DNA of 11,787 nucleotides from a virus (lineage: Duplodnaviria > Heunggongvirae > Uroviricota > Caudoviricetes). The stretch is from the IMG/VR virus record IMGVR_UViG_648276671_000012; one strand, written 5' to 3'. The notes under the pieces are model-generated. The model saw only the letters and a list, made by a program, of their open reading frames with translations, was not told where the DNA came from and searched no databases. Of the stretch, positions 1,681 through 3,785 are shown piece by piece (position 1 is the first letter of the stretch; each line of letters starts with the position of its first letter). Made by a program: the position numbers and the translations under genes.

Positions 1681-2238
1681 CTAGAGACTCTCTCCTTCCT
1701 CATCAGGAATTAATTCAGCAGCACAAGCCTCGTAGGATTTTTCCTGAAGAGTGTATCGCAGGTCATCAATTGCCTGCTGTACAACGCCGACGGCCTGAGG
1801 AGTCAGGGCGCAATCGCGTTCAAGAACATCCGGAATTGTCTCCAGAACCTGGACGACAGCCTTTCTCATGGACGAATAGACGATGACTACTTCATCAACG
1901 GGGATGAGTTTTCGCTGCTCCTTTTCCAGCTTGATCCTTTCATTTTCAGACTGGTACCAGTCCTTTCTCTCTTTCGGCTCCATACGGGATGGATCATGAA
2001 CAGAGTCTGCTGCCTCATGCTTCACACTAAACAGGGCTGGCCCGACATGCTGCAGGGCGTAAACGGGGTTCCCCCTGACAGTCGCAGCCACAGGAGTGTT
2101 GGCCGCGAGAAGCCGTTTTTTTACTGTGTCCCGGTGAAGCCCAAAGGCCTCAGCGATTTTAAAAACACTCCAGTAATAAGCATCACCGATCCCGCTCACA
2201 TTTGACATAAGCAACTCCATCTGGCAGGTGAAAATCAT
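1681..2238 (-). CDS. phage terminase small subunit (lambda Nu1-like, NohA-like)
   Basis: 185-aa ORF with N-terminal HTH-like segment (SVFKIAEAFGLHRDTVKKRL) and acidic C-terminus (AAELIPDEEGESL), resembling lambda Nu1. Lies between a cos-like site and the large terminase gene. True start may be the internal ATG at 2208..2206, which has a GGAG SD; the first ATG at 2238 lacks an obvious SD. Confidence 0.7.
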   Translation of the reverse strand: MIFTCQMELLMSNVSGIGDAYYWSVFKIAEAFGLHRDTVKKRLLAANTPVAATVRGNPVYALQHVGPALFSVKHEAADSVHDPSRMEPKERKDWYQSENERIKLEKEQRKLIPVDEVVIVYSSMRKAVVQVLETIPDVLERDCALTPQAVGVVQQAIDDLRYTLQEKSYEACAAELIPDEEGESL

Positions 2239-2387
2239 GTTTATTTATATATTTCAATTAATTGTAAACTGGTCTAATGACAGGGAGAAAAAAATATTGT
2301 ACAGGTAAAAAGAGAAATAACTTTTAATTATCAATAAATTACCAAACATGCTGCCGCCGCCATGGAAATGCAAAAACTAGCCTTTTT

Positions 2388-2407
2388 CCGCGACGCTCCC
2401 GCCCCGT
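2388..2407 (-). other. putative cosN (cohesive end site), lambda-like variant
   Basis: Minus strand reads ACG GGGCGGGAGCGT CGCGG, against lambda ACG GGGCGGCGACCT CGCGG as recalled (16 of 20 identical, both flanks conserved). It is a GC-rich island in AT-rich DNA about 170-190 bp upstream of the Nu1-like start, where cosB is expected. Confidence 0.5.
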
Positions 2408-2765
2408 GGCAGGGGCCCCCACCGGGAGGACCCGACAGCCTGACAGCCGTGACGAGCATCTGATACAGCGCTTTACATAATGGCATAGGAATAATTCAGA
2501 AGGACATCACAGCATGCCCACACAAATTAGTGTGAGTGTCCTGTTTCTTCCTACGCACAGGACTGACGAGCATGAGGGGAAAATACGCGAACCATAAATG
2601 CCTCATCTTCAGCAATGCAGCCGAACAGGACGATATTGTAAATTCACCTAATTACGAGGACATTGCAGTAGTTGAATTGCAGCTCTGTATTAGCCTGACA
2701 GTGACAGAATGCGATATTGACTCTGTCACAGGTGGAATAGTTTGAATGATTAGCAGTTATGGTGC

Positions 2766-2972
2766 TCAGTCAACCACCAGGGAATAATCCTTCGAATTCT
2801 TATCGTGCTTCACCAACGCTGCCTCAATTGCCCTGAATGCTTCCAGAAACACCTGATGTTCTATACATGCAATTACAACATCCGGGTAACTCATAGAAAT
2901 GGTGCTATTAAGCATATTTTTTACACGAATCAGATCCAACGAGAGTTCATCAGCAGATTGTTCTTTATTCAT
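2766..2972 (-). CDS. hypothetical small acidic protein (68 aa), moron between cos and ydfO-like gene
   Basis: ORF with GGAG SD 9 nt upstream of ATG (2972..2970). No recognisable motif. Occupies the position where I believe K-12 Qin has a small ORF between nohA and ydfO, but the sequence is not recognised. Confidence 0.4.
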
Positions 2973-3272
2973 TTTGTCGCTCCATGCGTTTGCTCGTCAT
3001 CTAGCGGTTAAAATATTACTTCAAATCTTTCTGCATAAAAGAGGAAAAGTATGAAAGTTTGAGTACATCGACCTTACATACATCTGTCGGTTGCATATCC
3101 CTCCTGGATGCCAGCAAGGCTCAACTTTGTTACGCAACCAACACTATTTATTGAAAACAGGCTTAATATTTGACATAAATCATCAACAAAACACAAAGAG
3201 GTCAGACCAGATTGAAACAATAAACACGATAATGCAAACTACGCGTCATCGTATCACATGGAAGGTTTACCA

Positions 3273-3683
3273 ATGGCTCAGGCTGCCATTTTTAAAGAAA
3301 TATTCGATCAAGTGCGTAAAGATTTAAACTGTGAATTATTTTATTCTGAGCTAAAACGTCACAATGTCTCACTTTATATTTACTATTTAGCCACAGATAA
3401 TATTCACATTGTGTTAGAAAACGACAACATAGTGTTAGTAAAAGGACTCAAAAAGGTTGTAAATGTTAAATTCTCCAGAAACAAACATCTTATAGAGACC
3501 TCCTATAATAAGTTGAAATCAAAAGAAATCACATTTCAACAATACAGGGAAAATCTTGCTAAAGCAGGAGTTTTCCGATGGGTTACAAATATCCATGAAC
3601 ACCAAAGATATTACTATACCTTTGATAACTCATTACTATTTACTGAAAGCATCCAGAAAACTACACAAATCTTACCACGCTAA
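3273..3683 (+). CDS. ydfO: DUF1398-family protein (YdfO-like), 136 aa
   Basis: ORF on the strand opposite the late operon; start chosen at ATG 3273 (GGAAGG SD 6 nt upstream) rather than the track ATG at 3258. Assignment rests mainly on synteny with K-12 Qin (nohA-ydfO-gnsB-ynfN-cspI) and matching length, not on recognised sequence. Confidence 0.55.
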
Positions 3684-3785
3684 ACCATAACGTCCGGCTT
3701 CTCTCACTCCTGAGCCGGACTGCATTGGTTTAATAAAAACCATCAACAATTGTGATTTAGATATTCGGAACCATTCAAATATAAC

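Follow-up and report, generated by a model that had tools for sequence, protein, structure and literature searches.

The closest described relatives of the gene analyzed here are p79 of phage lambda (47738-47944) and ybcW of the DLP12 prophage (b0559, UniProt YBCW_ECOLI), whose translation is the same as the lambda p79 protein. In its defective prophage, the K-12 gene is transcribed independently, and several regulators have been connected with it. K-12 ybcW is a ChIP target of FNR with the site TGTTGATGATTTATGTCAAATATT (PMC1802558), has been classed as FNR-activated (PMC2634741), and is directly activated by ArcA (PMC3798270); a 1.8-fold microaerobic induction was also observed (PMC8910356). 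A PdhR site identified by SELEX, AtcTGGTctgACCtcTT, lies in the divergent spacer between ybcV and ybcW, and in a pdhR mutant the mRNAs of ybcV and ybcW were down 10.0-fold and 8.9-fold, respectively (PMC7660256). In addition, Hha binds K-12 ybcW, and a 17-fold induction was seen in biofilm cells (PMC2408971).

On the phage side, lambda p79 is known to be non-essential; it was scored as "essential" in a CRISPRi map of lambda, which the authors explained by the polar effect of a roadblock on the late transcript of pR' (27 kb; PMC10695390). Such a polar effect confirms that p79 is located inside the late transcription unit. More recently, a September 2026 preprint named lambda p79 as the activator of Vulcan and as dispensable for the phage (10.64898/2026.09.04.749371). 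Vulcan is a NIR-HEAT NADase defence in which NAD+ depletion protects against lambda-vir (bioRxiv 10.64898/2026.09.04.749371). All of the sequenced Vulcan escapers (7/7) had deleted lambdap79, probably via recombination with the Qin prophage of MG1655, and these escapers without p79 still formed plaques (10.64898/2026.09.04.749371). Coexpression of lambdap79 and Vulcan was toxic, a result of this single preprint obtained with the lambda allele (10.64898/2026.09.04.749371).

The window examined in this study is an 11,787-nucleotide stretch of DNA from a tailed phage (Caudoviricetes; IMG/VR record IMGVR_UViG_648276671_000012). Over the 901 bp tested, it is 99.8% identical to a lambdoid prophage at the Qin locus of E. 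coli STEC299. The features discussed below are collected in table 1.

Table 1. Features of the ybcW-family locus and its surroundings in the window
Feature	Position	Strand	Remarks
DUF1441 small terminase gene	1681..2238	-	
cosN-like 12-mer GGGCGGGAGCGT	2393..2404	-	Based on lambda cos alignment and Tritos genome end
8-bp inverted repeat GTGACAGA/TCTGTCAC	2701-2708 / 2722-2729	-	13-nt spacer
ybcW / lambda-p79 family gene	2766..2972	-	Uninterrupted, 68 aa plus stop
Predicted 5' leader, ~160 nt	2973..3134	-	Kept in both types of upstream context; start site predicted
Shine-Dalgarno GGAG	2980..2983 (2983..2980)	-	7 nt 5' of ATG
16-bp leader insertion CTTTTCCTCTTTTATG relative to lambda and DLP12	3034..3049	-	
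Putative -10 element TAGTGT	3141..3146 (3146..3141)	-	TAGTAT in lambda and DLP12
FNR site TGTTGATGATTTATGTCAAATATT	3165..3188	-	Identical to ChIP-mapped K-12 ybcW site
PdhR box ATCTGGTCTGACCTCTT	3196..3212	-	DUF1398/ybcW divergent spacer
Divergent DUF1398 gene (ydfO/ybcV/lambda p78-like)	3258..3683	+	Same mosaic module as the ORF

An earlier note on this DNA had described the 68-aa ORF as uncharacterized and without a recognizable domain. A search of Pfam and NCBIfam with the 68-aa protein indeed returned no family, but all of its residues (1-68 of 68) align with PHROG 657 (E-value 6e-46), a phage protein family that has no functional annotation and from which we found no difference in the window protein. 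Using tblastn against phage records, we found that lambda 47738-47941 encodes a homolog with 89.7% identity and that the homolog in phage Tritos, annotated as YbcW, is 98.5% identical; the same annotation is carried by the homologs in phages 4W and E26. The lambda p79 protein has the same length as the window protein, and both genes occupy the interval from the lysis genes to cos on the late strand; the residues of the window allele that differ from lambda p79 are E9, L10, L12, Q40, F42, K58, and S60. YbcW of DLP12, which also has 68 residues and a divergent DUF1398 partner (ybcV), is 90% identical, with 7 amino-acid differences that include a change private to the window, S42F. These matches indicate that the window ORF is a member of the YbcW / lambda p79 family, which is already named and not novel. 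The label of an uncharacterized ORF with nothing recognizable is therefore not supported, since the family has a name, published regulation in K-12, and a trigger role in the 2026 preprint.

The description of a small acidic ORF with a good ribosome-binding site was borne out. The start codon is at 2972..2970 on the minus strand, and the GGAG upstream of it shows no variation in a DNA alignment of seven loci. The computed product has a mass of 7.7 kDa, a pI of 4.94, and a net charge of -4.3. The N-terminus as read from the sequence has no hydrophobic segment, and a soluble, cytoplasmic protein is thus predicted. We found neither a catalytic motif nor a metal site or export signal in the window protein. 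An 11-codon upstream ORF (3000..2965, minus strand) overlaps both the Shine-Dalgarno sequence and the initial 8 nt of the ybcW-family gene. Lambda and DLP12 retain this upstream ORF, as do HannyBb-type loci, in which it has a GTG start, and both of its internal differences between classes are synonymous third-position changes. This arrangement could mean translational coupling or control, the changes being too few to judge.

The occurrence of the family was analyzed at several levels. Of 5426 complete E. coli genomes, 2009 contain the 207-bp ORF, always with 68 codons and at 80-99.5% identity, and it was annotated as a CDS in every sampled full-length row of this survey. The nearest of these copies (99.5%) is one base apart from the window ORF. 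The true hosts are E. coli and E. ruysiae according to a genome scan, with Shigella among the sources of the proteins. A search for remote homologs, which covered 1.8 billion representative proteins, yielded thousands of apparent homologs, of which those below ~90% identity were nearly all frameshifted, error-laden translations from 3.5-kb contigs. Matches assigned to Veillonella, Pseudomonas, Streptomyces, Flavobacterium, and others in the scan of genome contigs likewise came from contigs ~3.5 kb or 48.5 kb long. A taxonomic spread beyond Escherichia was rejected, because these contigs resemble lambda control DNA; judging from their sizes and sequence, the 3.5-kb contigs would be the Oxford Nanopore control amplicon of the lambda right end and those of 48.5 kb lambda spike-in. 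One true distant homolog was detected (P0169, 63 aa), with 52% identity in the alignment and 58% by phmmer; it is a singleton in a collection of 5.8 billion proteins. The gene for P0169 (273..464 of contig L042, 270 bp from the contig end) is not part of a lambdoid late operon; it borders on a CP4-type integrative island that carries genes for AlpA, YagK/YfjJ, and zinc-ribbon proteins.

Conservation of the reading frame in related prophages, on which the earlier note had made the reality of the gene depend, was seen throughout, with zero indels across eight loci. In the alignment of seven loci, 36 of 204 ORF sites are variable, and half of these (18 of 36) are at third codon positions. The proportion of variable sites is 18% in the ORF, compared with 43% in the leader and 33% in the 3' flank. 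By the Nei-Gojobori method, dN/dS is 0.2-0.45 between the diverged classes and near 1 for the closest pairs, the latter on few changes. Amino-acid changes are concentrated at residues 2-19 and 57-60. The conserved core of the family includes YPDVV.ACI, and the C-terminal tail follows the pattern Y-S-L-(V/L)-V-D (YSLVVD in the window); both are essentially invariant and are kept even in the 52%-identical P0169. The pattern of substitutions indicates that the ybcW-family ORF is a real gene under purifying selection.

One explanation of these data would be that the ORF has no function as a protein and has been kept through the recent spread of the module or through cis-acting DNA or RNA signals of the late transcript. 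The divergence of the family is indeed shallow, most copies being 78-100% identical and only one homolog being distant, and the leader and 3' hairpin are conserved as well; the ratio near 1 in the closest pairs is also what such an ORF might show. However, the lower ratio between diverged classes with its excess of third-position changes, the smaller variability of the ORF than of both flanks, and the retention of core and tail in P0169 all argue against it, as does the finding that plasmid expression of the ORF alone triggers Vulcan (10.64898/2026.09.04.749371). We consider this explanation extremely unlikely.

The window protein has all core residues of the family except at position 42. Every other aligned homolog, the distant P0169 included, has serine at this position, and phenylalanine is found in the window allele only (codon TTT, 2849..2847 on the minus strand, with the changed base at 2848). 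The exact protein with F42 is recorded on one contig only, and the copy in STEC299, though nearly identical over the region compared, has S42. Since S42F is a private change at an otherwise invariant residue, the window allele might be impaired; the change could be neutral, damaging, or an escape change.

We also searched for similarity at the level of structure, as the earlier note had proposed. An AlphaFold2 model built from an alignment of six sequences has helices at residues 5-21, 25-38, and 43-59 (mean pLDDT 75, pTM 0.51), with low confidence at both termini. Foldseek with this model found no fold relatives in PDB or BFVD (best E-value above 3), and a profile search of PDB sequences found nothing. 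The family protein is thus predicted to be small and to consist of three helices; its N-terminus is variable, and its C-terminal tail is invariant. Considering that an invariant but poorly ordered hexapeptide is attached to a small helical body of 7.7 kDa, a protein that docks to a partner would be expected.

With regard to genomic context, the late genes on the minus strand are arranged in the order essD, ydfR, rrrQ, rzpQ, cspI, ynfQ, ynfR, ynfN, and gnsB, followed by the DUF1398 gene on the opposite strand, the ybcW-family ORF, cos, the DUF1441 small terminase gene, and the large terminase gene. The placement of the ORF between cos and a ydfO-like gene, as first described, is therefore correct. 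The cosN nick would fall between 2405 and 2404, ~360 bp past the stop codon of the ORF, and marks where the accessory region of the late operon ends. Here the minus strand of the window, ...GGTCCTCCCGGTGGGGGCCCCTGCCACG/GGGCGGGAGCGTCGCGG, aligns with the lambda junction ...CCGACAGGTTACG/GGGCGGCGACCTCGCGGG (the slash marks the nick), and the physical right end of the linear Tritos genome lies exactly at ...CTGCCACG, coinciding with the cosN of the window. In the cos region (2393..2470, minus strand), two units of the GCTGTCAG type are present just upstream of cosN, compared with three in Tritos.

Together with the spacer and the DUF1398 gene, the ORF makes up a mosaic module of 1.08 kb (2621..3702), which has 90% identity with both lambda 47023-48089 and DLP12. 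The homology with lambda stops 145 bp past the stop codon of the ORF, short of cos. Lambda and PhiR63_1 use a small terminase of the Nu1 type, in contrast to the DUF1441 type of the window, and the cos flanks differ. In DLP12, bor is beside ybcV, and an inserted ylcI (DUF3950) separates ybcW from cos; unlike DLP12, the window has gnsB and csp cargo as neighbors, and cos is directly downstream of the ybcW-family gene.

These comparisons bear on the possibility that YbcW/p79 has a late function linked to cos, as a helper of terminase or of cos recognition or as a factor in packaging competition between helper and satellite phages. In lambda, Tritos, PhiR63_1, and the window, cos follows directly after the gene, and p79 is transcribed together with the late genes, both of which are consistent with such a role. 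Nevertheless, a module of 90% identity is common to phages with unlike small terminases and different cos flanks, the lambda homology ends before cos is reached, and in DLP12 another gene has come between ybcW and cos. Moreover, lambda escapers with p79 deleted still form plaques, and no likeness in sequence or fold to any solved structure was found. A cos-linked function is therefore very unlikely.

The Qin prophage of K-12 was considered as a reference for the ORF and rejected, because MG1655 Qin has ynfO at this place and its homology to the window (97.4%) begins only at 3195, just outside the PdhR box. MG1655 Qin retains ydfO and the PdhR box, and ynfO (DUF3950) replaces the FNR site and ybcW. 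This agrees with the recombination proposed for the Vulcan escapers, since MG1655 Qin has the DUF1398 side of the module but not the ORF. YnfO in K-12 Qin and YlcI in DLP12 occupy the same slot before cos as ybcW, but these DUF3950 proteins are unrelated to YbcW in sequence, are basic, differ in orientation, and appear by eye to be ribbon-helix-helix-like.

The earlier note had further placed the ORF in the slot between Rz and cos where lambdoid phages carry morons, with bor of lambda as an example. A moron in the sense of Juhala et al. (1999) is an autonomous transcription unit inserted in a phage operon. In favor of this assignment, the ORF is a conserved accessory gene between the lysis cassette and cos, its GC content is low (41% in the ORF stretch and 31-42% in the cargo region, compared with 50-56% in the terminase genes), and it has the FNR and PdhR sites of K-12 ybcW. 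As to a promoter of its own, a plausible -10 element accompanies the conserved activator sites, and a promoter scan called none. The canonical moron terminator is absent: no factor-independent, terminator-like site was found in 2300-3400. The moron-slot assignment is thus partly supported.

The envelope proteins Bor and Lom carry export signals, and their genes are classic examples of accessory genes expressed by the lysogen. Lambda bor and lom, like ybcW, are accessory genes of low GC in or beside the late operon, and the likeness extends to an own promoter active in the prophage state, which for ybcW has been shown in K-12. On the other hand, YbcW has no homology to Bor or Lom and no export signal, and unlike Bor it has neither a signal peptide nor a lipobox. 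A bor-like role of YbcW in host interaction is plausible.

A convergent ORF on the plus strand (2536..2745, 57-69 codons) has no match in Pfam and no RefSeq annotation. A 1-nt indel in a hairpin loop breaks its frame in both lambda and DLP12, and the shared module does not extend over its 5' half. This ORF is probably open by chance. Pairing of the ybcW-family gene with a neighbor as a toxin-antitoxin system was rejected for both candidate partners: the DUF1398 gene is absent beside the homolog in HannyBb and PhiR63_1, and the plus-strand ORF, which belongs to no family, is frameshifted in both lambda and DLP12.

Upstream of the ORF, the sites described for K-12 are present in the window. The core of the FNR site, TTGAC-ATAA-ATCAT, is at 3170..3183 (reads on the plus strand) with its center at 3176.5, and a three-way alignment with lambda and DLP12 shows no variation in the whole 24-mer. 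The PdhR box of the window and DLP12 corresponds exactly to the published sequence, and that of lambda is one base off (T to C). The putative -10 element would place the transcription start near 3134, ~42 bp from the FNR center, which is class II geometry. A sigma-70 promoter scan did not call the TAGTGT element, as would be expected of an activator-dependent promoter without a -35 element. Considering that the FNR and PdhR sites are identical and have class II spacing to TAGTGT, expression of the window gene in two modes, from this promoter and within the late transcript, is probable.

The leader of the window contains a 16-bp insertion downstream of the predicted start, by which the FNR and PdhR sites are 16 bp farther from the ATG than in K-12. 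The insertion creates an upstream ORF of 6 codons, ATGCAGAAAGATTTGAAGTAA, and 8 of its bases are carried by HannyBb-type loci. A search of Rfam with 2300-3400 gave no match. A structured leader RNA was rejected on account of the weak consensus fold (-10.5 kcal/mol) with little covariation.

A second class of context was found in phages HannyBb and PhiR63_1 and at two genome loci (L034 and L035), in which the homolog directly follows gnsB. In the region ~300 bp upstream of the homolog, the DUF1398 gene, the FNR site, and the PdhR site are all absent from this class, and by eye a hairpin plus T-run resembling the gnsB terminator precedes the leader. Homology between the two classes starts almost exactly at the predicted -10 element and transcription start and runs through the 3' hairpin. 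The alignment thus indicates that the conserved unit is the leader, the ORF, and the hairpin, and that the anaerobic promoter goes with the version containing DUF1398, which is the type of the window. The absence of FNR and PdhR sites from the second class implies that FNR-driven expression in lysogens is not universal in the YbcW family.

Downstream of the ORF, the earlier note had reported an inverted repeat of 7 bp at 2699..2729. The repeat is real but measures 8 bp and is placed as in table 1, starting 37 nt past the stop codon. Three repeats of at least 7 bp occur in the 1 kb around the ORF, and the inverted repeat alone is near chance. The hairpin has a predicted RNA fold of -17 kcal/mol (z = -1.9), and 12 of 200 shuffled sequences fold equally well. 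Among seven loci, none of the 16 columns of the arms is variable, compared with 21 of 60 in loop and flanks (5 of the 13 loop positions, including a 1-nt indel, and 16 of 47 in the flanks). If sites varied independently at 0.35, 16 invariant positions would have a probability of ~0.001, which is overstated as the loci are related. The arms in DLP12 are the same as in the window. A terminator was rejected as an interpretation of the repeat, since a T-run is absent and no terminator was called in 2300-3400. Judging from the invariant arms, the inverted repeat is a conserved hairpin or a protein-binding palindrome, and a structure for 3'-end stabilization or processing would be the most economical reading.

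Taken together, it is likely that the ORF is a functional accessory gene of the YbcW/p79 family with two modes of expression, whose product binds a partner and can be recognized by HEAT-repeat sensors. According to this proposal, lambdoid phages would carry ybcW/p79 as a non-essential accessory gene, placed last in the late operon, just before cos. In the lysogen, it would be expressed from its own promoter in dependence on FNR, ArcA, and PdhR, under anaerobic or pyruvate-rich conditions such as those of the gut. In the lytic cycle, Q-antiterminated transcription would read through from the lysis genes into the gene. YbcW may then act stoichiometrically by binding another protein via its helical core and C-terminal tail, and the same surface may be what HEAT-repeat sensors such as Vulcan recognize.

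Alternatively, YbcW/p79 may be a dedicated counter-defence inhibitor, with Vulcan as a second-line sensor that detects the inhibitor. The sensing of Ocr by PARIS is a precedent for defence of this kind, and several triggers of defence systems are known to be anti-defence proteins. Lambda p79 itself is a defence trigger according to the preprint. The protein is small, acidic, and helical without an enzymatic motif, p79 is non-essential in laboratory K-12, and the gene is located in an accessory hot spot whose content is swapped among phages. However, it has no likeness to a known anti-defence protein or fold (a PADLOC search with the window protein gave nothing significant, and no likeness to described defence or anti-defence proteins was found). 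A place at the end of the late operon would also be late for such a function, and a promoter controlled by FNR, ArcA, and PdhR in a defective prophage suits the physiology of the lysogen better than an inhibitor acting at the time of infection. We therefore regard a dedicated inhibitor as rather unlikely, and prefer the partner-binding accessory gene with two modes of expression.

A more far-reaching reading is that the invariant C-terminal tail of YbcW docks a protein of the host or of a rival phage, and that YbcW could be a counter-defence or superinfection factor that is switched on by FNR and ArcA in lysogens of the anaerobic gut and that HEAT sensors have evolved to detect. Such a scheme is speculative and, in our estimation, improbable. 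If it were true, Vulcan-type systems would not be compatible with the ~37% of E. coli that have ybcW prophages, and changes like the private S42F of the window could be escape variants.

The practical outcome for the window is the annotation of a ybcW-family gene, its DUF1398 partner, and the cos site. With regard to the family, ybcW/p79 is among the last lambda genes without an assigned function and is present in more than one-third of complete E. coli genomes. Its conserved, gut-relevant anaerobic promoter (FNR, ArcA, and PdhR), its invariant tail, and its reported role as a trigger of Vulcan make this function accessible to experimental testing.
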